64,000 bases of DNA. Source: Brevibacterium luteolum. Lineage in GTDB: Bacteria; Actinomycetota; Actinomycetes; Actinomycetales; Brevibacteriaceae. The notes under the pieces are model-generated. The model was not told the DNA's origin. It saw only the letters and a program-made list of their open reading frames with translations, and did not search any database. The translations under genes were made by a program, and so were the position numbers. Positions 1,868 to 59,217 of the stretch are shown piece by piece. The stretch spans positions 186,001-250,000 of the forward strand of contig NZ_JABEMC010000001.1 of the NCBI RefSeq assembly GCF_013004595.1. The letters run 5' to 3'. The number at the start of each line of letters is the position of its first letter. Position 1 is the first letter of the stretch.

Positions 1868-2275
1868 TCAGACGCGCGGGCCCGAGGGGTTGCTCAGGGC
1901 GCGCTTGAACGCGTTGAGTGCCGACTTGCCGGAGCTGATCGCCGACTGCGGGGTCGGGTTGCCCTTCTTGAGGAACGGCACCGCAATGCCGACGAGGATG
2001 AGCGCGAGCACGAGCAGGATGCCGAAGACGATGAGGGCGCTCAGCCACCACGACAGCCCGACGCCCTCGTGGAAGACGGCTACGAGCAGGAAGGTGACGA
2101 CAAGCGAGCCGAGGAACAGCAGGAATAGTCCGGCGACCGCCAGGCCGGCACCGATGCCGAGCTTCTTGACACCCTCGGTGACCTCGGCCTTCGCGAGGGC
2201 CGACTCCTCCTGGACGAGTGCTTGGCCATCAGCTTGGATGTCTTTGATGAGCTGGGAGATCGACCGCTCGGACAT
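1868..2275 (-). CDS. Holin-X-like (phage holin family) membrane protein
   Basis: N-terminal RSISQLIKDI..LVQEESALAKAEV, two TM segments, GAAGGAG RBS; usual neighbour of acs in actinobacteria. Confidence 0.75.
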   Translation of the reverse strand: MSERSISQLIKDIQADGQALVQEESALAKAEVTEGVKKLGIGAGLAVAGLFLLFLGSLVVTFLLVAVFHEGVGLSWWLSALIVFGILLVLALILVGIAVPFLKKGNPTPQSAISSGKSALNAFKRALSNPSGPRV

Positions 2276-2499
2276 GCTGGCTCCTTCATAGATGAGGAAT
2301 GGGTAACGCTGCTTGCTTCCTAGCCTAATGCGTTCTGCCCGCCTGACAAACGCCAGGGCGCGCGAAAATCTGCGAAACCACCGGTCAGCGGCCCGCGCCC
2401 AAGGGCTTCGGGGCCGGCGTGCCGCCAGTCGGGCGCGGGCCGGGACCCGCTGTCGCGGCCCCGTTTCCGTGCCCGAGGCGGCGGCTGGCCGGGCAGATC

Positions 2500-4440
<1,941 letters not shown>

Positions 4441-4721
4441 GTGTACCTCCGACAACATGGGGAGCTGGAACAAATGCCTCCGTGATGCACCTTACATCGA
4501 ATTCTCTCACCGGTTAAGACTGCTCATCTCATTCGGCCACAGTGTGGGAAACGTCAGCAGGCTGGCGCCGACAAGGGGTGATGTCGGTAAGCTAGCCCTC
4601 GACATGCTTACGTCCAGCGAAGGACCGCGGGGCGCCGGGGCCGGGCAGGCCGCCTGCGGGCCGCGGGACTGAGACTCGGCCACCGTGCCAGGTCACAACG
4701 ACTTGAGGAGAACTTCCGATC

Positions 4722-6995
4722 ATGAGCACCCCCTACCAGCCTGGCGGACAGCAGCAGGACCCGCATCAGTCGGCGTCTGCCTACGGCAGCCAGCCCGGCG
4801 CCGGATACGACGCCGGTTACGGCGGACAGGAGCCCGCAGCCTACGGCAGCCAGAATCCGGGCGCCTACGGCAGCCAGGGTCAGACCTACGGCCAGCCGCA
4901 GGGCCAGGCGCCGCAGTCCGCGCAGTGGGATCAGCAGCAGGCCGGCTACGGCAGCCAGATGCCGGCCGCCTACGGCAGCCAGCCCGGCGCCGGATACGGC
5001 CCTGGTGGCTACCCGCAGCAGAGCGCGGCCCCGCGTCGGCCCGGTGGCGGACTGCTCGGGCCGCTGACGCTGCGCGACATCCTGCTTCTCATCGGTGCGC
5101 TCTTCGGGCTCATCTCGCTCATCACTCCGTTCTGGCGCGACATGTACGGTTTCGGCTACGGGTTTGAGAACACCTTCCTCATGACGAGCAGGTACGGCTG
5201 GCAGATCGTTCTCATGTGGCCGCTGCTGCTCATCATCGCCGGGGTCATCACGCTGCTGAATAAGACGGTGCGCGGCTTCCCGCAGCGCATAGGCTCGCTC
5301 AGTCCCGATCAGCTCATCTCAGTGCTGACATCGGTGGCTTTCGCCACCTGCGCCCTCGAGATCGCGCTGACGGTGTTCTCGATGTCTGCCTGGCACGTCG
5401 GAGCCTACTTCGCCTTCGTCGGAGCGCTTGTGTCCTTCTTCGCCGGCGTCTTCACGATGCTGCCGTTCTTCGCCGCTGAGTTCACCCAGCGGCCGGACAG
5501 TCAGGCACATCCGAAGGCCCGCCCGGTCTCGCGTGATGCCGCCTCGACCGCCCCGGGACTCAGCCAGCAGGCCCAGCCGCACGTTCCGCACGGTCAGTAC
5601 GACCAGTACGGTGTCCAGTCCCAGATGGGCCAGTTCGGCCAGCAGGACCAGTCCGCCGCTCAGCCGGGCTACGCGGCTGCCGACCTGCAGGCCTACGGTT
5701 CGCAGCAGCAGGCGTACGGATCGCAGCCGACTGGCTACGCCGCACAGCAGCAGGCTTACGGTTCGCAGCCGACCGGTTATGACGCGCAGCAGCACGCCTA
5801 TGGCTCCCAGCCGGCAGCCGGTGAGACCCCGGCCGCTGATTCCGGCAGCCAGGGCGCAGGTTCAGTCGCCGGTGCCGTCGGTGCCGGTGCGGCCGGAGCC
5901 GCAGCCACCGGCATCGGCATGAACGCCGATGACAACGACGCGCAGGCCGGTGACTTTGCCGCCGGTGAGGAGCCCCGTCAGCAGCAGATCTCCGACGATG
6001 GCCAGGCGTACCTCGGCAGCCACACCGCTGACGCTCCCGAGCACGCGCAGAGTGAGCCGACCCAGGCGTTCATGGCCGGCGGCCGGACGCACAGCGCAGA
6101 CTTCAGCGATAATGCAGCTGCTGAACCGGCAGCCGAGCGCAGCAGCGACGACGCAGCTGCAGACGGCCTTGCAGGTGCCGACGTCCACGATGCTGATCGC
6201 ACCGTCGTCGCCGACACCGTCAGCGACGCCCCTGCTGAGGCGGTCAGCGAGGAACCGGCCGAGTCCGTAAGTGACGCACCTGCTGAGACCGCAGATCCGA
6301 CCGAGACCGAGCGCACTGCAGCAGACGATGCCGACAGCCAGTTGGCCGAGGCCAGCGGCTTCGGCGCCAAGGCTGCCGACACCTCGGGTGCGGACACGGT
6401 CGCCGAGACCTCGGCACCGGCGGCAAGCGAACCGGCAGCCGATCAGCCGGCCACCCGCCGGGAGGCGCGCGTGCGCGGTGAACAGCAGGCCAGCGATGAC
6501 CCGAACGAGCCGACCCAGTGGTTCCGGGCCTACGAGCGCGACAGCTCGGGCGCGGCAGCGCCGACCAGTTCCGGCAGCACGGCCGCCAGCGAGCTCGCCG
6601 ACAGCGACCAGACGGTGGCTGCAGGTGAGCCAGTCGCCAGCGATCCGTCGCTCGATCAGCCGACTCAGGCCTGGACCCCCGGCGCCGACGCGCAGGCACC
6701 CGGCGCCGATGCGACGCTCGACCAGCCGACCCAGGCGTGGAGCCCGGCGACAGAGTCGACGACCGACACCGGCGAATCGGCCGAAGCCGTGCCCTCGGGC
6801 CAGGCCCAGCCGTTCTGGTTCGCCGTCCCGGAGCCGCGCGAGGCGATCGACCCGAGCACCGGCCGGCCGCTGTTCACCGTCACCCCCGGTGAATGGTTCC
6901 TGGCGCTGTCGGACAACGGCACCACCTTCACCGTCCGGGACGCCACCGGGCAGGAGGGACTGCTGCGCAACCTGGAGGGCATCCAGCGCGGCTGA
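4722..6995 (+). CDS. Membrane protein with long Gln/Gly/Tyr-rich and acidic disordered regions and a small C-terminal domain
   Basis: Four hydrophobic segments at about aa 120-250, many AYGSQ repeats, C-terminal QPFWFAVP..GEWFLAL; GAGGAG RBS. Confidence 0.7.
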   Translation: MSTPYQPGGQQQDPHQSASAYGSQPGAGYDAGYGGQEPAAYGSQNPGAYGSQGQTYGQPQGQAPQSAQWDQQQAGYGSQMPAAYGSQPGAGYGPGGYPQQSAAPRRPGGGLLGPLTLRDILLLIGALFGLISLITPFWRDMYGFGYGFENTFLMTSRYGWQIVLMWPLLLIIAGVITLLNKTVRGFPQRIGSLSPDQLISVLTSVAFATCALEIALTVFSMSAWHVGAYFAFVGALVSFFAGVFTMLPFFAAEFTQRPDSQAHPKARPVSRDAASTAPGLSQQAQPHVPHGQYDQYGVQSQMGQFGQQDQSAAQPGYAAADLQAYGSQQQAYGSQPTGYAAQQQAYGSQPTGYDAQQHAYGSQPAAGETPAADSGSQGAGSVAGAVGAGAAGAAATGIGMNADDNDAQAGDFAAGEEPRQQQISDDGQAYLGSHTADAPEHAQSEPTQAFMAGGRTHSADFSDNAAAEPAAERSSDDAAADGLAGADVHDADRTVVADTVSDAPAEAVSEEPAESVSDAPAETADPTETERTAADDADSQLAEASGFGAKAADTSGADTVAETSAPAASEPAADQPATRREARVRGEQQASDDPNEPTQWFRAYERDSSGAAAPTSSGSTAASELADSDQTVAAGEPVASDPSLDQPTQAWTPGADAQAPGADATLDQPTQAWSPATESTTDTGESAEAVPSGQAQPFWFAVPEPREAIDPSTGRPLFTVTPGEWFLALSDNGTTFTVRDATGQEGLLRNLEGIQRG

Positions 6996-7320
6996 CCCGC
7001 CGGAACCCTGAAGAACACTGCGCGCCCTGATCCGCATCACCGATGTGGACCAGGGCGCGCAGTCGTGTGTGCAAGGCGGTGAGTGCACCGCGACGCGTGC
7101 GCAGAAGCTGTGGATGGGTGGGAAGTGAGCGGTGCAGAAGTGGGCGTCGCAGCAGGGATTCTCGCAGGCGAGGTCCGCGGACGGGCGCGCTGACCAGCAG
7201 CAACGCTGACAGGTGTGGACGCAGGTGACCTGCGGTCACAAGCGGCAGGCGCAGCCGCTGCTATCCACAGCCGAGGCGGCCCCCGCCTAGGGGAGAGTGG
7301 ATTCGGGTGAGCCTGAGGAC

Positions 7321-8364
7321 ATGTCCCGCATCGCGCTCGTCACCCAGCTGACCAGCCTCGCCGAACAGTGCGCCGCACTCGCCGACGGCATCGGCATCCG
7401 TCTCGACGTGCTGGCCCCGCACTCCGGCGGCTGGCAGGACGCCGTGCTCGTCCTCCTCGGCGAAGACGTCACCGACCCGCTGCCAGCACTGTCCGCCCCA
7501 ACGGTGCTCATCGCCGTCGACCACGCCGCCGAGGTGTGGCAGCAGGCCGCCCGGCTCGGCACCGACACCGTCGCCGTGCTGCCAGCAGCCGCCGAATGGC
7601 TCACCCAGCGGATGATCCACGCCGTCGAACCGCCCGGCAGCCCAGCCACCACGATCGGTGTCGTCGCAGGTTCCGGAGGAGCCGGCGCCTCGGTGCTGGC
7701 GTGTGCGCTCGCCCGCCATGCCGCGACCGAGGCGGTCGAGACGGTGCTGCTCGACGCCGACCCGCTCGGCGGGGGCGTCGACCTTGTGCTCGGCTACGAG
7801 AACATCGACGGGCTCAGGTGGCCTGCGCTGACGACCTCGCGCGGGCGGCTGAGGCCCTCGACTCTGCCGCAGGCGCTGCCCCGCAGTGAGGGACTCTCCG
7901 TGCTGTCCTGGGATCGCGAGACCCACGCCGATCTCTCCGGCGACGTCTTCGACGCCGTCATCACCGCAGCCCAGCAGGCATTCAACCTCGTCATCGTCGA
8001 CCTGCCCCGGCATGCCCCAGTCGAATGGGCCTCCAGCTGCCACCACCTCGTACTCGTCACTCCCGCCCGGGTGCGCGCAGTCATCGCCGCCTCGTGCGTG
8101 GCCAGCCGACTGCGCGCCGTCCACCCGGCCGTCGGCCTAGCAGTCCGCGCAGTCGATCGGCAGGGTCTCGACCCTGCCCTCGTAGCCGAGAGCATCGGAC
8201 TCGAACTGCTCGGCAGCTACCGCGACGACCCGCCCCTGGCCGCCCAAGTCGACCGCGGCGAGGGCATCCCGTACGCGCGCACGCGCCTCAAACGATTCGC
8301 CGCAGGCGTGCTCGACGGGATCCTGACAGACTCACCGCACTACGCCAGCGCAGGTGGCCGATGA
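7321..8364 (+). CDS. ssd: Septum site-determining protein Ssd / CpaE-like
   Basis: Deviant Walker A GSGGAGAS, LLDADPLGGGVD, GLRW; first gene of the tad cluster. Start could be GTG 7297. Confidence 0.85.
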   Translation: MSRIALVTQLTSLAEQCAALADGIGIRLDVLAPHSGGWQDAVLVLLGEDVTDPLPALSAPTVLIAVDHAAEVWQQAARLGTDTVAVLPAAAEWLTQRMIHAVEPPGSPATTIGVVAGSGGAGASVLACALARHAATEAVETVLLDADPLGGGVDLVLGYENIDGLRWPALTTSRGRLRPSTLPQALPRSEGLSVLSWDRETHADLSGDVFDAVITAAQQAFNLVIVDLPRHAPVEWASSCHHLVLVTPARVRAVIAASCVASRLRAVHPAVGLAVRAVDRQGLDPALVAESIGLELLGSYRDDPPLAAQVDRGEGIPYARTRLKRFAAGVLDGILTDSPHYASAGGR

Positions 8365-52689: not shown

Positions 52690-54102
52690 ATGCCGTCGAT
52701 GATAATCGGCGCGGTGGCCGCATTCCTGTTAAAAGCCGTTTTTCAACTAGTCAAAATCCGTTGGCCCGAGAACTATTTTGATAGCTCAACTAGGTCAACT
52801 GCATGGTTTACCGATTCTCCCATTAAAGTGTTGCTGTGGAGGGCCGTCCCGTTCTCCTTGGGTGGCATGGTTCTGGTGAGCGTTGGCATCGATGTGAACC
52901 TTAATAATAATATATTGATACTTTCCTACTTGTTCTTCCATCTCCTGACTACGAATGGAGTCACGCTTTTCAGGGCGGTAGCAGTCGGCGTAGGCGTGGG
53001 GGGACAAGTATTGTACTTCGCGGTGACATTAATTTGCCTTGGGTTTATTTCCGTCTTAATGATTGTTGGAGATGACTACGCCCGACAGTTTTTCCCTAGC
53101 TGGGAAAACCTGATGTCCGGCGTTTGGACGGCAATATTAGTTGGAGTAGGTCTCGCTGCTTACAATGTCGCGACTAGATCCTCGCCTGAAGTGCCGGCTC
53201 CGGTCTTGGAGCCAAGCAACCTAAAAACGCCGATTTACTATATTGCGACGATTTGTCGGTTCGCCTATCAGAATAGAGTCGACCCATTATTATTGCTCGC
53301 AATAATTGAAGTCGAGGTTCAAAACAGGCCTAGTTTTGCCCGTCACGCAGAACTATTTCTTTGCCGAATTGCGCCGAAGTGCCTTCGTCCGTTAAGCCTC
53401 GGGGTCGCGCAGCAGCCATTTCCGGATCTTAAGAATCGTAGGGACTTCTGGTCGATTAAGCTTCGTGAACTTGATTTTCGATCGATCGAGATATTGTCTA
53501 GCCGGTTAAGTGGTATAAATCCGGGTGATTCCCGGCTTGTCCTCGGCTCTTTCGAGGTAAAAGCCGCTGCTAATAGAATCAATGGTTCTTCTGAAGTTAT
53601 AAATTCGGTTGCGGAGACATACCGTCGTCTAGTCGATGCGGAAGGAGCTCTCTCAGAATATGTTGATCTAAATCCACCGGACGGAGATCTTGATGTGAAT
53701 TCGCGGAATCTTTATCAAGGATTTTCGATGTCGGATGCTCTGACAATCACATCGCCGTGGGCGATTCGCTTTGAAGACTCAGTCTACGTTTATTTTCGGG
53801 TGGTGGGAGATCAGATTGAGGGAGTCCGTCTCCTTGCCGAGGATGTAGTCTCCGGTTCGATCGTGAGGCGATGGGAGTTTGATAGCTCGCATTGTGATTA
53901 CATTTTTGGCCTGTACCGAATATCTGCTGTGGGGAGTGGGGTTGTGCTGATGATTGATACAGCCGATGGATCGTCATTGGAATTCGATACTTCCCCCGTG
54001 CATTACGAGCCGCCGTTGCGACTGGTTTACTCCGCGTCGTCTGATCTTGTGAGTTTAGGCTATAGCCTAAACGCGGAAGGTGTATCAATGCGTAGAGGGT
54101 GA
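52690..54102 (+). CDS. Low-GC hypothetical membrane protein with possible lysozyme-like domain
   Basis: 470-aa ORF in AT-richer DNA, AAGGAG RBS, about 5 N-terminal TMs, then VDPLLLLAIIEVE..SLGVAQ. Confidence 0.65.
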   Translation: MPSMIIGAVAAFLLKAVFQLVKIRWPENYFDSSTRSTAWFTDSPIKVLLWRAVPFSLGGMVLVSVGIDVNLNNNILILSYLFFHLLTTNGVTLFRAVAVGVGVGGQVLYFAVTLICLGFISVLMIVGDDYARQFFPSWENLMSGVWTAILVGVGLAAYNVATRSSPEVPAPVLEPSNLKTPIYYIATICRFAYQNRVDPLLLLAIIEVEVQNRPSFARHAELFLCRIAPKCLRPLSLGVAQQPFPDLKNRRDFWSIKLRELDFRSIEILSSRLSGINPGDSRLVLGSFEVKAAANRINGSSEVINSVAETYRRLVDAEGALSEYVDLNPPDGDLDVNSRNLYQGFSMSDALTITSPWAIRFEDSVYVYFRVVGDQIEGVRLLAEDVVSGSIVRRWEFDSSHCDYIFGLYRISAVGSGVVLMIDTADGSSLEFDTSPVHYEPPLRLVYSASSDLVSLGYSLNAEGVSMRRG

Positions 54103-54710: not shown

Positions 54711-56401
54711 CTACTTCACCAGCTCCTCAGCCTTCGCCCGCAGCTCGACCTTGCGGATCTTTCCCGAGACCGTCATGGGGAACTCGTCGGTGATCTGCAG
54801 GTAGCGGGGGATCTTGTAATGCGCCAGCTGGCCGGAGCAGAACTCGCGCAGCCGGTCGATCGTCAGCTCCTCAGCGCCCTCGCGCAGGATCACCCAGGCC
54901 ATGAGCTCCTCGCCGTACTTCTCATCGGAGACCCCGACCACCTGCACGTCTCGGATCGCCGGATGCTGGTAGAGGAACTCCTCGATCTCACGCGGGTAGA
55001 TGTTCTCCCCACCGCGGATCACCATGTCCTTGATCCGGCCGGTGATGTTGAGATACCCGTCGTCGTCCATGATCGCCAGATCCCCGGTGTGCATCCAGCG
55101 GGCGGCATCGATCGCCTCGGCGGTCTTGTCCGGCTCCTCCCAGTATCCGAGCATCACGCAGTAGCCGCGCGTGCACAGCTCGCCCTTCTCACCGCGCGGC
55201 ACCGTCAGCCCGGTGATCGGGTCGACGACCTTGACCTCAGTGTGCGGCATCACCCGGCCGACGGTCTCGGTGCGGCGCTCCAGGCTGTCATCGGTGCGGG
55301 TCATCGTCGAGACCGGCGCGGTCTCGGTCATGCCGTAGCAGATCGCCACCTCGGCCATGTTCATATCGCTGATGACCCGCTTCATCACCTCGACCGGGCA
55401 GGTGGAGCCGGCCATGACGCCGGTGCGCAGCGTTGAGAGGTCGAAGTCGGAGAAGTTTGCCAGCTCCAGCTCGGCGATGAACATCGTCGGCACGCCGTAC
55501 AGCGACGTGGCCTTCTCATCGGTCACCGCCTGCAGGGTCGCCTGCGGGTCGAAGCCAGGGGAGGGGATGACCGCGCACGCCCCGTGGGAGTAGATGTCGA
55601 GGTTGCCGATGACCATCCAAAACAGTGAAAGAACGGCACCGGCAGGCACACGATGTCCTCTTCGGTGTAGCCGAGCAGCTCGCCGATGAAGTAGCCGTTG
55701 TTCAGGATGTTGTGGTGGCTTAAGGTCACGCCCTTGGGGAAGCCGGTGGTTCCCGAGGTGTACTGGATGTTGATCGGCTCGTCGGCTCCCAGCTCGGCGC
55801 CAAGCGTTGCCAGCCGCACATCGGCTTTGACCGCTGGGCGGTCCATGAGCTCTCGACCGCGTTCGAGCAGGTGGGCGAACGATTCCGACTCGTCGAGGCC
55901 GCCGGCAGGGGAGGCGAGGACCTCCTCGGCGGCGGTGTCGATGAAGACCAGCCGCAGGTTCGCCACCGCACCGGCCACCTCGCGAGCGAGTGCCACGAAG
56001 TCCGAGTGCGGGGCGGCCATCTGTGAGATGAGCAGCGTCGTGCCGGACTGCTTGATGACGTATTCGAGCTCATGTGCCCGGTATGCGGGATTGATGTTGA
56101 CGAGGATCGCGCCGATTTTCGCCGCCGCGTACTGCACGATCGTCCACTCCGGCAGGTTCTGCGCCCAGATGCCGACCCGGTCGCCCTTGGCGATCCCGCG
56201 GTCGATGAGGCTCATCGCCACCGCATCGGAGTCGCGATCGAGTTCGGCGTAGGTCCAGCGGCGGCCGGTCGGGGCGTCGACGAGGGCTTCGCGGTCGGCG
56301 AACCGGGCGACGTTCTTCTTGAAGTTCGCACCGATCGTGTCGCCGAGCAGCGGCTGGGACGACGTGCCCGAGGTGTAGGACAGTTCTCGTTGCGCACTCA
56401 C
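54711..56401 (-). pseudogene. AMP-dependent acyl-CoA synthetase (FadD35-like), split by a 1-nt frameshift near 55617
   Basis: 5' part has [11 protein letters not shown] and PFFHCFG; the continuation [27 protein letters not shown] is in another frame; junction reads ttt gg atg gtc. Confidence 0.85.
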
Positions 56402-56442: not shown

Positions 56443-56619
56443 GGGTTGTGGTGCTCATCATAAACACCCGAGACGCGACTGACGAGGGCGGGGAGGGTGG
56501 GGTGCCGGAGGGGGCTTCGGCGAGCGCTGCGTGCCGGAGTGAGTGTGATGTCCGCCGCGCCGCATACACTCACGTCTAAGTCGGCTGATATAGGTCGCCG
56601 GTTACGAAATGAGGTTGCG

Positions 56620-59217
56620 ATGACCATCATGGATCCCACGCCGATCAGGCGGCAGCCCTCGGGGCGCCTTGACGAAATCGAGGCTGTGTTGCCGAGATTG
56701 CGAACAGAACCGGCTGAGCCTCACGACCCGTTCCTTGCTCTCGTGCGCGGACGGCCAGCGCGAGAGGTGAACCCCGGCCTGTGGGATTGGCAGGCAGAGG
56801 CGTTGGACCGCTGGCACGCATCAGATTGTCGAGGTGTCATCGAGGCAGTGACCGGTGCCGGCAAGACGATGGTCGGCATCACCGCTGCATACGAGGCGTG
56901 CCGAATGGGAGTCAAGGTCCTGGTGCTCGTGCCGACTATCGAGCTGCAGGAGCAGTGGTTTTCGCGACTGAACACGACCCTGCCCGATGCTCTCGTCGGC
57001 ATGTTCGGCAACGGGCGCCGCGATTCGCTTCGGGACTGCGACATCGTCATTGCAGTCGTCCACTCTGCTGCCCGCAGCGAGCAGCTGGCAGATCACCACA
57101 GTGGTCTTCTCATCGCTGACGAGACTCATCGCTACGCGGCCCCGTCCTTCGTGCGTGCGCTCAGCGAGCGCTTCTCCTACCGACTCGGTCTGACTGCCAC
57201 CTATGAGCGGCCGGATGAAGCACACAAGCACCAATTGGATCCCTACTTCGGCGGAGTCATCTTTCGCCTGTGGTACGACCGAGCCCTCGCTGATGGTGTG
57301 ATCGCTCCGTTCGACCTCGCGTTCGTGCGCATCGATCTGAACGCCGAGGAGCGGTCAAACTATGAACGCTTCAGCAGCCGGATGAGCAAACTCGAAAGGC
57401 CACTGCGGCACAAGCTCGGACTAGTCGGCGCGCCGGTGGGGAAGTTCTTCACGGCAGTCTCTCGACTCGCCGGCCGGAAGGACGATCCCAGCCCGGCTGC
57501 GATGATGGCACGTCGCTATCTCGACGCGATGAACCGCAGGCAGTCTGTGCTGTCGAATGCCCGATCCAAGCTTCGGCTTTTGGAGGAGCTTGCTCCGGTT
57601 GTCGCGAAATCGGATGGAACCCTCGTTTTTGCCGACACGATCGACAGCTCAACTCAAGCCGGCGCTGTCCTCAGTTCGGCAGGGGTCAAGTGTGAGTCGA
57701 TCAGCAGCGACTCTCCGCCGGAGACCAGGCGCGGGGCTCTCAGCCGCTTCGGCCATGGTCATGCGCAGGCGCTGTGCGCGCCCCGGATCCTCGACGAGGG
57801 AATCGATGTGCCCCGAGCCGACCTCGCGATCGTGGTTTCCGGGTCGAGACAGGCCCGTCAGACCATTCAGAGGCTCGGCCGAGTCATCCGGCGCAAGCCG
57901 AATGGCGGCAGAGGGCGCTTCGTTCACGTCTTCGCCGCACGGACTGCTGAGGATCCATTCGAGCGCAAGAGCCGCCAGTACGCTGACATCGAACAGTTCG
58001 CAGATCGTGTCGGGCACTTCACCGGTGACGAGGTGCGAAGCCTCAGACGCTTCCTCCTCGAAGACCGGCGACAGATGCGGCCACCTCTCGCTGAACCGCA
58101 CTCCGAAGCGGAGGTGCCGCCGACAGTTGAAACGGTCCTTGTGCCTGAGCCCGTCGAGGCCCCGCACGCTGCGACACCTGAACCTCAGGCGCCCTCGCCA
58201 TCACCGACAGAACCGGGGCCCGCTGAAGACGGGGCGTTTGAGATCGTCCTTCGGATACCGGATGAACGGAAAGTCGCCGCAGACGAGTTGAGGCCGCAGC
58301 TCGGCGGCAAAAGCTTGCACGACAGCACCAAGCTTTATCTGATCGGCATCGGCAAGGCGCCGTTGCTCACCGCTGAAGATGAGGTCGCGCTGGCGAAGAC
58401 CATCGAAGCGGGACTCTACGCGGAACACCTCTGGCAGAATGAGCGCTACTCCACGCGACGCGGACGCCATGAGCTCGAAGCAGTTGTGCGCGAGGGCCGG
58501 GAGGCGAAAGAGAAGTTCGTCAGAAGCAACCTGCGCCTAGTTGCCAGCATTGCAAAGTCCTATGCACGACATTGTCATCACCTGGAATTTCTCGATCTCA
58601 TCTCGCATGGCCACATCGGGCTTACGCGTGCGGTCGACGGTTTCGACTTCAAGCGAGGACAGAAGTTCTCAACGTATGCAACGTGGTGGATCCGCCAGTC
58701 GATCAACCGGGGCATTCAGGACGAGGAACGAACTATCAGGGTGCCCGTGCATGTGCTCGATCGAGTCAGTGAGCATCGCCGGTGCGAAGATGCCCGACTG
58801 TGCGACCATGACATCGACCTGATCGAGCGGGTCGACTATATGCAGCCTCGTTCGCTGGATCGGATCCTGGACGATGAGAAGCTCGTGGGCCTTTTCGCTG
58901 AACGGTTCAGCCCGGTCGACCTCAATACGGGGGAGAGCCAACACACTCTTCCGCACCCGGAGGACGAGATGCTGCTGTGCGAGCGCAACGCAGCGGTCAA
59001 TGCAGTCATCGACCAGTTGCTTGGACCCCGCGAGGCTGACATCATCCGACGCCGATTCGGATGGAGTGGCGAGCCGCAGACCCTCGAGGTTATCGGCCAG
59101 GCGTACGACGTGACACGGGAGCGGATACGGCAGCTGGAGCGGGACTCGCTGAAAACACTCAGGGAGTTCATGACGCGGGTCCCCGCTGGCGATGAAGAAG
59201 ACGTTCCGGCCGGCTGA
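56620..59217 (+). CDS. SF2 DExH helicase (XPB/Rad25/ResIII-like) fused to a C-terminal RpoD-type sigma70 domain
   Basis: WQAEAL, TGAGKT, VPTIELQEQW, DETH, LTAT, LVFAD, LDEGIDVP, QRLGRVIR; then DSTKLYL..LLTAEDEVALA, NLRLVASIAK, KFSTYATWWIRQ, RTIRVPVH, RRRFG..TLEVIG..VTRERIRQLE; GAGG RBS before ATG 56620. Confidence 0.9.
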   Translation: MTIMDPTPIRRQPSGRLDEIEAVLPRLRTEPAEPHDPFLALVRGRPAREVNPGLWDWQAEALDRWHASDCRGVIEAVTGAGKTMVGITAAYEACRMGVKVLVLVPTIELQEQWFSRLNTTLPDALVGMFGNGRRDSLRDCDIVIAVVHSAARSEQLADHHSGLLIADETHRYAAPSFVRALSERFSYRLGLTATYERPDEAHKHQLDPYFGGVIFRLWYDRALADGVIAPFDLAFVRIDLNAEERSNYERFSSRMSKLERPLRHKLGLVGAPVGKFFTAVSRLAGRKDDPSPAAMMARRYLDAMNRRQSVLSNARSKLRLLEELAPVVAKSDGTLVFADTIDSSTQAGAVLSSAGVKCESISSDSPPETRRGALSRFGHGHAQALCAPRILDEGIDVPRADLAIVVSGSRQARQTIQRLGRVIRRKPNGGRGRFVHVFAARTAEDPFERKSRQYADIEQFADRVGHFTGDEVRSLRRFLLEDRRQMRPPLAEPHSEAEVPPTVETVLVPEPVEAPHAATPEPQAPSPSPTEPGPAEDGAFEIVLRIPDERKVAADELRPQLGGKSLHDSTKLYLIGIGKAPLLTAEDEVALAKTIEAGLYAEHLWQNERYSTRRGRHELEAVVREGREAKEKFVRSNLRLVASIAKSYARHCHHLEFLDLISHGHIGLTRAVDGFDFKRGQKFSTYATWWIRQSINRGIQDEERTIRVPVHVLDRVSEHRRCEDARLCDHDIDLIERVDYMQPRSLDRILDDEKLVGLFAERFSPVDLNTGESQHTLPHPEDEMLLCERNAAVNAVIDQLLGPREADIIRRRFGWSGEPQTLEVIGQAYDVTRERIRQLERDSLKTLREFMTRVPAGDEEDVPAG

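Follow-up and report, generated by a model that had tools for sequence, protein, structure and literature searches.

A recurrent actinobacterial gene joining an XPB-family helicase to a SigA-like sigma module

A single gene of Brevibacterium luteolum, at positions 56620-59217 on the plus strand of the 64,000-nucleotide stretch analysed here (the window), encodes in 865 codons and a stop an XPB-family helicase fused to a sigma factor module. The helicase-sigma fusion is an uncharacterised, mobile accessory gene that recurs in many actinobacteria. Textbooks present sigma70-type initiation as the model of promoter melting without ATP, and XPB as the model of an ATP-driven opener at eukaryotic promoters. 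Other ATPases of bacterial transcription, working on RNA polymerase or in promoter opening (RapA/HepA, HelD, Mfd and the sigma54 AAA+ activators), are separate polypeptides of other ATPase families, and to our knowledge none of them is a sigma70-family protein with its own motor. A conserved, natural motor-sigma fusion makes the use of a motor by a sigma70 holoenzyme testable in bacteria. It also raises the questions of what a promoter-bound motor does (open, clear or block) and whether defence islands target transcription complexes.

The gene and its product

The open frame spans 56497-59217, and the ATG at 56620 gives a product of 865 amino acids. An RBS-like GAGG at 56611-56614 lies 5 nt before this ATG, and both are kept in the nearest relative, strain L021, which supports the start. 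Translation and Pfam matches agree with the single uninterrupted 865-codon frame described in the original prediction. In the upstream region an imperfect inverted repeat was read by eye (Table 1) and was absent from the report of an automated repeat search; L021 keeps its arms with a different spacer, and it is possibly an operator or a 5′-UTR hairpin. GC3 of the gene is 0.71, against 0.84-0.91 in the adjoining genes, as expected from the lower bias noted earlier. Upstream lies fadD on the minus strand, which, in correction of the earlier account, carries a frameshift in the B. luteolum assembly; maoC, a citE-like gene and def follow downstream on the plus strand. The gene had been described as standing alone between fadD and maoC, and this holds in the species group of B. 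luteolum only and not elsewhere. MaoC orthologues are present in 29 of 30 other Brevibacterium genomes, and when a simple insertion between the two genes was looked for, none of 11 loci had the fadD N-terminus within 1.5 kb of maoC. The B. luteolum locus has metabolic flanks, with neither defence genes nor an adjoining Bax1-type nuclease; a separate, more distant XPB-like gene lies on a different contig of the same genome.

Table 1. Features of the fusion gene and its upstream region (window coordinates)
Feature	Position	Strand	Residues	Basis
Imperfect inverted repeat, upstream region	56537..56573	+		by-eye reading
XPB-family SF2 helicase core, two RecA-like lobes and helical insert	56755..58074	+	46-485	Pfam, profile, Foldseek
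Motif I / Walker A, AVTGAGKT	56845..56868	+	76-83	G79, G81, K82 and T83 invariant in 52 fused proteins
Motif II, DETH	57118..57129	+	167-170	D167, E168 and H170 invariant in 52 fused proteins
RED-like motif right after motif III	57208..57216	+		RPD in B. luteolum, RxD in family
Motif VI, QRLGRVIR	57868..57891	+	417-424	Q417, R418, L419, G420, R421 and R424 invariant
Disordered Pro/Glu/Ala-rich linker	58075..58320	+	486-567	pLDDT; gappy alignment
Mosaic tract relative to L021	58075..58974	+		NG86 synonymous divergence
Sigma region 1.2	58321..58422	+	568-601	PF00140, 6e-11; D568 and L582 invariant
Sigma region 2 (core binding, -10 recognition and melting)	58516..58731	+	633-704	PF04542
Region 2.2 motif, DLISHGHIGL in B. 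luteolum	58594..58623	+		alignment of 52 proteins
Degenerate region 3	58732..58974	+	705-785	translation, alignment
Sigma region 4 with -35-reading helix	58975..59178	+	786-853	PF04545

In the helicase half, Pfam matches ResIII at residues 55-197 (3e-23), Helicase_C at 317-425 (1e-13) and ERCC3_RAD25_C at 298-448 (5e-8). XPB chains were the top matches of the core in a profile search against PDB (5e-49 and 4e-48), with archaeal XPB the best over the whole core. Using Foldseek, we found archaeal XPB at ranks 1-8 and 10 (6p4w_A at 2.7e-18; 6p4f_C, the best fold match, at TMt 0.69 and rmsd 4.3 over 419 columns), so that both profile and fold bear out the XPB-type helicase that had been predicted. 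The pLDDT of the core is mostly 85-96. All of the SF2 motifs named earlier are in the translation, among them TGAGKT at residues 78-83 and the motif III TAT at 192-194. An alignment of 52 fused proteins with 36-92% identity was used to assess conservation; the ATPase motifs are invariant across it, as are the -10-melting and -35-reading residues of the sigma half. Motif II reads DECH in most relatives and DETH in B. luteolum. XPB bears a RED motif at the position just after motif III, where R197 and D199 are invariant in the 52 proteins and the middle residue is variable. Judged by its motifs and fold, the core is an ATPase-competent XPB-family double-strand-DNA translocase.

The whole two-lobe core aligns with archaeal and bacterial XPB (A. 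fulgidus 2fwr/6p66; S. tokodaii XPBII 5tnu/6p4f; E 5e-49 for query positions 21-415), with motifs I-VI in common and an RxD at the RED position. Unlike XPB, the fusion does not keep the middle residue of RED, lacks the N-terminal damage-recognition domain and has no adjacent Bax1-type nuclease. Only ~45 residues precede its core (pLDDT < 50 for residues 1-32); the first ~36 are disordered, and the match begins at chain residue ~65-90. Its score with the NCBIfam XPB orthologue model NF045503 is 103.6 bits, below the cut-off of 610 bits.

The linker varies in length and sequence among relatives. Residues 488-537 are rich in Pro, Glu and Ala, and pLDDT is below 50 at residues 491-539 and 549-567; composition and low pLDDT thus support the Pro/Glu-rich linker noted originally between the helicase and sigma parts. 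As modelled, such a tether can keep the motor close but can pass torque only if the motor has its own docking on the polymerase. With ~80 disordered residues, coupling of force or torque would need this docking, and none was seen.

The sigma module is SigA-like and consists of regions 1.2, 2, a degenerate 3, and 4. Pfam matches Sigma70_r1_2 at residues 568-601 (6e-11), Sigma70_r2 at 633-704 (2e-14) and Sigma70_r4 at 801-849 (7e-13). The STYATWWIRQ and TRERIRQLE motifs lie at 684-693 and 832-840. NLRLV (637-641), S684, T685, Y686, A687, W690, Q693 and R697 of region 2, and R833, E834, R835, R837 and Q838 of region 4, are invariant in the 52 fused proteins. These matches and residues confirm regions 1.2, 2 and 4 with the melting residues and the region 4 helix-turn-helix (HTH), as originally read. 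The assignment to group 1 did not hold. No Pfam Sigma70_r1_1 match was found for region 1.1, and the helicase and linker precede region 1.2. Region 3 (pLDDT 54-64) still has RTIRVPVH at the start of region 3.0 and the region 3.2 SLD; in place of the region 3.1 HTH it has a stretch with His and Cys residues (H719, C722, C728, H730). The Pfam region 3 model (PF04539) has no above-threshold match in the B. luteolum protein and matches some Micrococcaceae relatives. Since region 1.1 is absent and region 3 degenerate, the architecture is group-2-like and not that of group 1.

Against HrdB, SigA and SigB the sigma part gave E-values of 1e-54 to 1e-50, and Foldseek returned SigA chains within RNA polymerase initiation complexes. 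Regions 1.2, 2, 3.0 and 4 align with these factors at 37-40% identity, with identical melting and -35-reading residues. Unlike them, the fusion has a helicase at its N-terminus in place of region 1.1 and the N-terminal acidic/basic extension, has a degenerate region 3.1 in the Brevibacterium clade, and is accessory rather than universal. It reaches at most 220 bits with the NCBIfam sigma models, compared with cut-offs of 464 (SigB) and 555-582 (RpoD).

Recurrence and selection

The domain architecture recurs in many actinobacteria, and the reservation that the fusion might be unique to one assembly falls. Among the matches listed, 120 of 120 protein clusters carry ResIII/Helicase_C together with Sigma70_r2. 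The sigma part is present in 33 of the best 150 representatives (50% identity), and both halves lie in one frame at 24 of 79 genome loci, with two further loci broken. The fusion was also found on two megaplasmids and in two independent metagenome contigs. Recurrence in clusters, genome loci, megaplasmids and metagenome contigs rules out a misassembly or lost stop. At 51 helicase-only loci, tblastn (E <= 1e-6) gave no sigma-like match. A split form, with a helicase gene beside a separate sigma gene, was not found at these loci. Within the order, 8 of 401 sampled genomes carry the fusion; within the genus the figure is 4 of 27. Among phage records none covers >= 80% of the fusion protein, and there were 58 sigma-only matches. 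In the main texts of the open-access literature searched we found no description of the fusion, nor in the consulted parts of PMC8467076, PMC8195603 and PMC12839542; the statement that no characterised example is known still stands.

Searching the genus with the sigma part yielded no more than one further match in any genome, indicating that Brevibacterium generally has only its primary sigma visible; a role as stand-in for a missing SigB was rejected on this ground. A conserved neighbour, h3, has a weak region-4-like stretch (20.5 bits; hhalign probability 39%) and was not counted as a sigma factor because the match is below the cut-off.

We consider it very unlikely that the B. luteolum copy is a degenerating relic of a horizontally acquired element without current function. 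Decay would fit a gene that is solitary, without the partner genes found elsewhere, has low GC3 and a diverged region 2.2, and adjoins a frameshifted gene. However, the frame is intact and free of indels in B. luteolum, L021 and the two independent metagenome contigs, and all ATPase motifs are preserved. Between B. luteolum and L021, NG86 dN/dS comes to 0.12 in the helicase and to 0.24-0.33 in the sigma regions; on these sequence comparisons, purifying selection acts on both halves. In addition, contigs from two RNA libraries (oligo-dT metatranscriptomes, in which DNA carry-over is possible) cover parts of the gene including the linker, which also argues against a remnant.

Predicted docking and proposed action of the motor

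Complex prediction for the sigma part with beta′ gave a score of 0.79, compared with 0.00 for the best of three controls. Among solved complexes 116 of 157 came up to this mark, and among mismatched pairs 2 of 215; the counts are approximate because our own alignment was used. The runs agreed in 72% or more of their contacts, and partner pLDDT was never below 73. The predicted interface, sigma residues 658-670 with beta′ residues 326-376, would place the sigma part on the beta′ clamp helices as in solved sigma factors. This canonical interface agrees with the coupling to RNA polymerase suggested in the original prediction; it resembles solved sigma/beta′ structures and may be recall of known holoenzymes.

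We give about an even chance to the reading that, in a conflict-related role, the sigma module anchors the motor on RNA polymerase and at SigA-type promoters. On core polymerase, region 2.2 would contact the beta′ clamp helices and region 4 the flap; the module would read ordinary SigA-type -10 and -35 elements, and docking would bring the motor to promoter DNA. With the complex anchored, ATP hydrolysis would then shift the flanking duplex DNA against it, by analogy with XPB in TFIIH and with restriction-enzyme motors that start from recognition sites. In this way the protein may act on, or protect, transcription complexes on invading phage or plasmid DNA. The disordered tether and the possible recall in the complex prediction speak against this reading. 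So does region 2.2: IQEGN-type residues occupy this site in 50 of the 52 aligned proteins, and B. luteolum and its nearest relative depart from them (Q662S, E663H, N665H) at predicted beta′ contacts.

Alternatively, though we think it unlikely, the protein could be a true alternative sigma factor with ATP-driven, TFIIH-like promoter opening. A holoenzyme would form normally, and the XPB motor, placed where region 1.1 normally guards the downstream channel, would grip the downstream duplex and reel DNA into the cleft. This would permit initiation on relaxed, linear or damaged templates, for instance after double-strand breaks. The helicase family itself favours this explanation, and the motor replaces region 1.1 exactly, N-terminal of region 1.2, with the full set of melting residues retained. 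The next-best folds are TFIIH XPB/Ssl2 inside pre-initiation complexes (7o4k_7, 9pd3_A, 8byq_0; E ~1e-14, TMt ~0.5), where the Pol II system physically links a helicase of the same family to its machinery for promoter recognition and initiation. Unlike the rigid multi-subunit scaffold of TFIIH, however, the fusion is a covalent bacterial sigma on a flexible linker, and it lacks the eukaryotic N-terminal and other TFIIH-binding domains. A disordered tether of this length cannot carry torque, and the promoter-reading residues are those of SigA, so that no separate regulon is evident. A NERD-UvrD helicase at 14 of 29 loci and an AddAB/AdnAB-like helicase-nuclease pair, a break-processing pair, beside the fusion at 13 count in favour of ATP-driven opening, but the AdnB-like neighbour has no match in the B. 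luteolum genome at E <= 1e-10 (one long query, which may miss weak matches). The same result weakens a housekeeping linkage to AdnAB. The patchiness among sampled genomes suits an accessory gene better than a stress regulator. We likewise doubt the wider proposal of a one-polypeptide bacterial analogue of TFIIH, in which a sigma70 holoenzyme with an XPB motor would open promoters in an ATP-dependent, supercoiling-independent manner for mobile elements or defence islands. These would use it to transcribe, or to take over transcription, when host DNA topology or the host sigma is attacked.

Neighbourhoods and sister proteins

At many loci outside Micrococcaceae, defence genes adjoin the fusion; this association is descriptive. 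BREX type-2 genes (BrxHI, BrxD, PglZ and BrxC/PglY) adjoin it at L015, L022 and L036; GmrSD occurs at L010 and L023, AbiH with HNH at L011, and a zeta/ParD pair and an MNT protein at L009. A PDC-S37-like giant protein is found at L022 and L024, a ThsA-like SIR2 protein at L024 (another member of its cluster, c30, is at L025), and an SNF2 helicase with an Eco57I/MmeI-type methylase at L045. The NERD-UvrD helicase of 14 of the 29 loci belongs to this context as well. An unannotated five-gene operon with BrxD-like ATPases also came to light.

Patchy spread, foreign composition, megaplasmids and defence neighbours, and the swaps for RAMA or type IV modules described below point to conflict with phages or plasmids as the likeliest role, ahead of control over a housekeeping regulon. 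Of the functional options listed originally, the anti-phage one is therefore favoured, and a housekeeping or damage regulon is less so. Several observations weigh against a docked motor in conflict. Nuclease and other effector domains are missing from the protein, PADLOC has no model for it, and no phage record carries it. The flanks in B. luteolum are metabolic, the Micrococcaceae loci are syntenic chromosomal sites, and the two plasmid-borne copies have dnaE, a PHP-domain gene and hypothetical genes as neighbours and no defence genes.

The sigma module might instead form no productive holoenzyme and serve as a DNA-targeting domain or decoy that triggers or localises the motor against an invader, an explanation we regard as improbable. 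In the targeting version it would seek promoter-like (AT-rich, foreign) sequences, and in the decoy version it would sense phage proteins that attack the host sigma; the motor would then block transcription or replication of the invader. Region 1.1, which keeps free sigma70 off DNA, is missing, and core-binding residues are altered in the B. luteolum lineage. Furthermore, sigma regions 1.2-3 are mosaic and diverge fast between near-identical strains, as expected of a conflict surface: synonymous divergence from L021 is 0.37-0.93 in the mosaic tract and 0.08-0.21 in the other parts of the gene and in the flanks. On the other hand, the NLRLV and IQEGN core-binding residues (regions 2.1-2.2) are kept in 50 of 52 proteins, for which mere DNA binding or a decoy function gives no obvious need, although a decoy would likewise have to resemble sigma. 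In addition, the beta′ interface predicted for the module is canonical, and a step that discriminates self from non-self is not visible.

Sigma-family proteins in defence systems lend the targeting or decoy explanation further support, and MzaA of the MZA anti-phage system (NF041931, PDLC02203) is a precedent for a sigma-family module within a defence protein. Its sigma-like C-terminal half matches residues 612-850 of the fusion with 215 bits (NCBIfam, far under the 800-bit cut-off) and 134 bits (PADLOC). Unlike the fusion, MzaA has ~450 N-terminal residues in its model that do not match the helicase, and none of the Mza partner genes was seen around the fusion loci. The helicase core is matched by PbeA (205 bits) and dnd_restrict_1 (143 bits, cut-off 600); the PbeA match is limited to residues 54-258 and 368-428, and the ~250 N-terminal residues of PbeA are absent from the fusion. 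The design of a motor with a DNA-recognition module is shared with ResIII restriction motors; the fusion differs in having no nuclease domain and in a recognition module that is a sigma, expected to bind RNA polymerase as well.

Other DNA-recognition modules in the sigma slot of the same helicase clade also favour targeting. A tree of 147 helicase cores places every one of its 31 sigma-fused rows in a single clade with 44 members (SH-like support 96), which also includes P0127, fused to RAMA, and P0162, fused to a type IV restriction module. The modules found in the sigma slot are RAMA (P0127), DUF3427/type IV restriction (P0162, L071), region 4 alone (P0271) and HTH_17 (P0239). This defines a larger helicase clade, in which the C-terminal slot holds a sigma, RAMA or type IV restriction module.

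Reading frame, domain layout and recurrence

The gene joining a helicase to a sigma factor reads, as the original prediction had it, as one uninterrupted frame. A GAGG lies 5 nt upstream of the ATG, and both are kept at the locus of the closest relative, Brevibacterium sp. p3-SID960 (L021). All helicase and sigma motifs named in that prediction were found in the translation. Six Pfam domains were matched with E-values of 5e-8 to 3e-23, while no Pfam model of region 3 or region 1.1 matched the protein. The proposed Pro/Glu-rich linker is a real Pro/Glu/Ala-rich stretch. An AlphaFold2 model, made from an alignment of 52 sequences, has a mean pLDDT of 79.2 and a pTM of 0.57; it is confident for the helicase, sigma regions 1.2–2.4 and region 4, with pLDDT of 54–64 in sigma region 3. 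The architecture is helicase, linker and sigma module, the two halves being joined by a flexible tether. Codon usage is indeed less GC3-biased, with a GC3 of 0.71 versus 0.84–0.91 in the neighbours.

Features of the fusion gene and its surroundings
Feature	Window position	Residues	Remark
Low-GC segment	52600–54200		GC 0.47–0.50 versus ~0.67 background
Low-GC ORF	52690–54102 (+)	470 aa	2.5 kb upstream of fusion
fadD-type AMP-binding gene	54711–56401 (−)		two overlapping ORFs, break near 55618
Imperfect inverted repeat	56537–56573		upstream of fusion start codon, read by eye
Open frame	56497–59217
Fusion gene	56620–59217 (+)	865 aa	from ATG, without stop
Helicase, confident in model		40–485	AlphaFold2
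ResIII		55–197	Pfam
ERCC3_RAD25_C		298–448	Pfam, weaker match
Helicase_C		317–425	Pfam
Linker		491–567	pLDDT <50
Sigma regions 1.2–2.4, confident in model		568–703	AlphaFold2
Sigma70_r1_2		568–601	Pfam
Sigma70_r2		633–704	Pfam
His/Cys stretch	58774–58809	719–730	H719, C722, C728, H730
Region 4, confident in model		780–853	AlphaFold2
Sigma70_r4		801–849	Pfam
Linker plus sigma regions 1.2–3	58075–58974		raised dS
Clustered differences	58436–58467		9, in a compost-metagenome contig
Metagenome contig 1	56496–59315		5 differences
Metagenome contig 2	56444–59500		21 differences
RNA-library contigs	57444–58593, 57298–58394		bridge linker

The His/Cys stretch replaces the HTH of sigma region 3.1, and the pattern is found in most Brevibacterium-clade proteins displayed in the alignment, one of them (P0010) having no Cys there. 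It may form a small metal-binding knuckle, at a site of low model confidence. The arms of the inverted repeat are identical in L021 and its spacer has diverged; an automated repeat search did not report it. An operator or a 5′-UTR hairpin is possible.

The fusion is recurrent. When 5.8 billion clustered proteins were searched, both helicase and sigma Pfam domains were present in all 120 matches listed (the best 120 of 8000 candidates scored), for which the only source name was ‘sigma-70 family RNA polymerase sigma factor’. Among these, Brevibacterium matches are 49–92% identical to the window protein, and those from Arthrobacter, Pseudarthrobacter, Paenarthrobacter, Sediminivirga and Specibacter 40–44%. 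Two fused proteins bear the source labels Bacillus subtilis (P0021) and Burkholderia sp. (P0108); they are 49% and 42–43% identical to the window protein, like Brevibacterium- or Arthrobacter-type proteins, and their source assemblies are likely mislabelled or contaminated.

Recurrence in independent genomes was borne out when species-representative genomes were scanned with a helicase-only profile (A1). Helicase and sigma share one frame at 24 of the 79 resulting loci (Brevibacterium, Arthrobacter/Pseudarthrobacter, Pseudoclavibacter, a Geodermatophilaceae isolate, and Intrasporangiaceae and Propionibacterium MAGs). The sigma part lies just downstream in a different frame at two (L030, L037), a contig end cuts two, and at the remaining 51 the whole locus is devoid of sigma-like sequence. 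A sigma part was also found in 33 of the best 150 matches among 1.84 billion representatives at 50% identity, ∼26 of the 33 being full length. Contigs from two independent metagenome assemblies span the whole gene, linker included, with no indel. The linker is also bridged by contigs from two RNA libraries, in which DNA carry-over is possible. The listed matches, the genome loci and the metagenome contigs rule out an assembly artefact.

Kinship, conserved residues and predicted polymerase docking

The helicase has XPB kinship and the sigma half SigA kinship. A profile of the helicase part, searched against structures, matched S. tokodaii XPBII first (4.6e-49) and A. fulgidus XPB at 3.6e-48, with the whole core covered; TFIIH XPB/Ssl2 came next at ∼1e-19. 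Using the AlphaFold2 model, Foldseek placed archaeal XPB chains at ranks 1–8 and 10 (best superposition 6p4f_C, TMt 0.69, rmsd 4.3 over 419 columns), ahead of TFIIH XPB/Ssl2 in pre-initiation complexes. Since both searches rank archaeal XPB first, the helicase half is an XPB-family core. It is not an XPB orthologue: the N-terminal damage-recognition domain of XPB is absent, and the NCBIfam XPB orthologue model gives 104 bits against a cut-off of 610. The nearest PADLOC model is PbeA (205 bits, core only). A separate, more distant XPB-like gene (31–32% identity) is also present in the B. luteolum genome. The sigma half is closest to actinobacterial HrdB, SigA and SigB (1e-54 to 1e-50), with an alignment that spans regions 1.2 to 4.2, and is 40% identical to the primary sigma of the same genome, which has five sigma70-family genes in all.

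Both halves are constrained. Across 52 fused proteins, 36–92% identical to the window protein, the invariant helicase residues include G79, G81, K82 and T83 of motif I, D167, E168 and H170 of motif II, and A193 and T194 of motif III. Also invariant are R197 and D199, which we take to occupy the position of XPB's RED motif, and the motif V/VI residues, including Q417, R418, L419, G420, R421 and R424. Invariance in the sigma module extends to NLRLV 637–641, the −10 recognition and melting residues (S684, T685, Y686, A687, W690, Q693, R697), R707, P709 and H711 of region 3.0, and R833, E834, R835, R837 and Q838 of the −35-reading helix. Since its promoter-reading residues are the same as in primary sigma factors, the module is expected to recognise ordinary SigA-type promoters and not a private motif. 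Region 2.2 has IQEGN-type residues in 50 of the 52 proteins; ISHGH stands there in the window protein and in the relative 92% identical to it (Q662S, E663H, N665H).

A complex of the sigma part with residues 1–470 of the β′ subunit from the same genome was predicted with a score of 0.79, versus 0.00 for the best of three controls. Of the solved complexes, 116 of 157 reach this mark, as do 2 of 215 mismatched pairs; with our own alignment in use, these counts are rough. Runs agreed in at least 72% of contacts, the partner pLDDT was at least 73, and sigma 658–670 was placed against the β′ clamp helices 326–376. Because many sigma/β′ complexes have already been solved, the prediction indicates likeness to them, not binding.

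We propose that the sigma module would hold the motor at RNA polymerase and at SigA-type promoters, where ATP hydrolysis would move the promoter-flanking duplex DNA. The protein could instead be a true alternative sigma factor with TFIIH-like, ATP-driven promoter opening. The XPB kinship of the helicase and its position in place of region 1.1 agree with this reading, which would require a motor rigidly docked on the polymerase; we consider it unlikely. Only a demonstration of ATP-coupled initiation would make the fusion new in kind. Full-text searches of the main text of openly accessible articles gave no description of a helicase–sigma70 fusion. Related passages in two papers mention ECF-like or sigma-HTH-like domains only, in conflict systems (PMC8195603, PMC12839542).

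Distribution and divergence

The fusion gene is accessory and mobile. In an evenly sampled survey of 401 genomes of the order, with two candidates scored per genome, it was found full length in eight: 4 of 27 in Brevibacterium (the B. luteolum genome among them), 3 of 26 in family f10 and 1 of 25 in family f23. The remaining sampled genomes had only a primary sigma or a helicase-only relative. Copies lie on the megaplasmids pACHL01 of P. chlorophenolicus A6 and pYJN5-1 of Paenarthrobacter sp. YJN-5, adjoining plasmid dnaE and hypothetical genes; none of the phage records searched had the fusion.

Divergence between the window and L021
Segment	dN	dS
Helicase	0.017	0.14
Linker	0.182	0.37
Sigma regions 1.2–2	0.17	0.71
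Sigma region 3	0.26	0.93
Sigma region 4	0.027	0.08
Flank maoC	0.026	0.19
Flank fadD	0.024	0.21

From the linker through sigma region 3, dS is 0.37–0.93, versus 0.08–0.21 in the rest of the gene and its flanks. By this pattern, the middle of the sigma module is a recombinant mosaic tract, the mosaic being confined to the sigma core. The tract is still under purifying selection (dN/dS 0.24–0.28). Intact frames and the dN/dS values speak against decay of the gene, which we consider very improbable.

Module exchange and genomic context

A FastTree of 147 helicase cores, with 4 of 150 rows dropped for a helicase match of <330 residues, grouped all 31 sigma-fused rows into a single 44-member clade (SH-like support 96). 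A group of four joins it to make a clade of 48; the remaining 99 helicases fall outside the 44. Of the sigma-less proteins within the clade, P0127 has a C-terminal RAMA domain and P0162 a second helicase plus DUF3427; the Blastococcus counterpart of P0162, L071, matches a type IV methyl-directed restriction enzyme (mREase_IV, PADLOC 725 bits), the added part of its 1330 aa being a second ResIII helicase and DUF3427. Several short sigma-less proteins in the clade are probably fragments. At least 10 changes of sigma label are needed on the tree, 8 of them forced by well-supported branches, and none of 500 label shuffles needed as few. This tree, unrooted and built by a quick method, fits one fusion origin followed by losses or replacements. 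P0271 and P0239 lie outside the clade; the partner module is region 4 alone (26.3 bits) in the first and HTH_17 in the second. XPB-like helicases of 1300–1347 aa with extra C-terminal sequence were seen at L069, L071 and L079 (Blastococcus and an Actinomycetota MAG), and a gene of the HNH cluster (h8) adjoins those at L071 and L079.

The sigma module could also have a polymerase-independent DNA-targeting or decoy role. The exchange of modules, the mosaic nature of the sigma tract and the changed region 2.2 in the window copy agree with this reading; we think it rather improbable.

Among longer helicase-only loci, 17 of 43 share a five-gene operon, mostly in Acidimicrobiia MAGs: a 520–710-aa protein with a sigma-region-4-like HTH stretch (below threshold only), a ∼260-aa protein without matches, two BrxD-like ATPases and, last, the XPB-like helicase. 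It looks like an undescribed BREX-related candidate system. Loci with this operon include L044, L048–L053 (in L053 at 2260–8346), L062, L065, L070, L074, L075, L077, L094 and others.

No neighbour is conserved across genera among the clustered loci of the fusion. In Micrococcaceae, a NERD plus UvrD-like helicase is present in 14 of 29 clustered loci, mostly immediately upstream; an AddB-like PD-(D/E)XK protein and an AddA-like UvrD-nuclease follow downstream, and farther out on the upstream side are NUDIX-NrtR, ARPP-1, ADP-ribosylglycohydrolase and TY-Chap3 genes. The Arthrobacter/Pseudarthrobacter loci L012–L014, L025–L029 and L031–L038 hold the fusion in a syntenic block, with the NERD-UvrD helicase adjoining, an AddAB/AdnAB-like pair downstream, and NUDIX-NrtR, ARPP-1 and ADP-ribosylglycohydrolase-DSPc genes upstream. 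The block is a possible NAD/ADP-ribose conflict module. Outside Micrococcaceae, recognisable defence genes are neighbours of the fusion. This adjacency is a descriptive association.

Neighbours of the fusion at individual loci
Locus	Neighbours
L015, L022, L036	BrxHI (907 bits), BrxC/PglY (1150), PglZ (824), BrxD
L010, L023	GmrSD
L011/L042	AbiH, HNH nuclease, NUDIX
L009	MNT-HTH protein, zeta/ParD pair
L022, L024	PDC-S37/Hhe-like giant protein
L024	ThsA-like SIR2 protein (cluster c30, further member in L025)
L045	SNF2 helicase, Eco57I/MmeI-type methylase

Because of the genomic context and the module swapping, we find a conflict-related role the likeliest for the fusion protein, with doubt and confidence about evenly balanced.

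In the window itself, the fusion is flanked by the fadD-type gene and, on the plus strand, by maoC, a citE-like gene and def. The only oddity near these metabolic flanks is the low-GC ORF, which had no match in Pfam, PADLOC or NCBIfam; the low-GC segment is probably foreign DNA. Relative to the intact 563-aa gene at the 95%-identical L021 locus, the split fadD-type gene is one G short in a GGG run; either it is a frameshifted pseudogene or the sequence has an error here.
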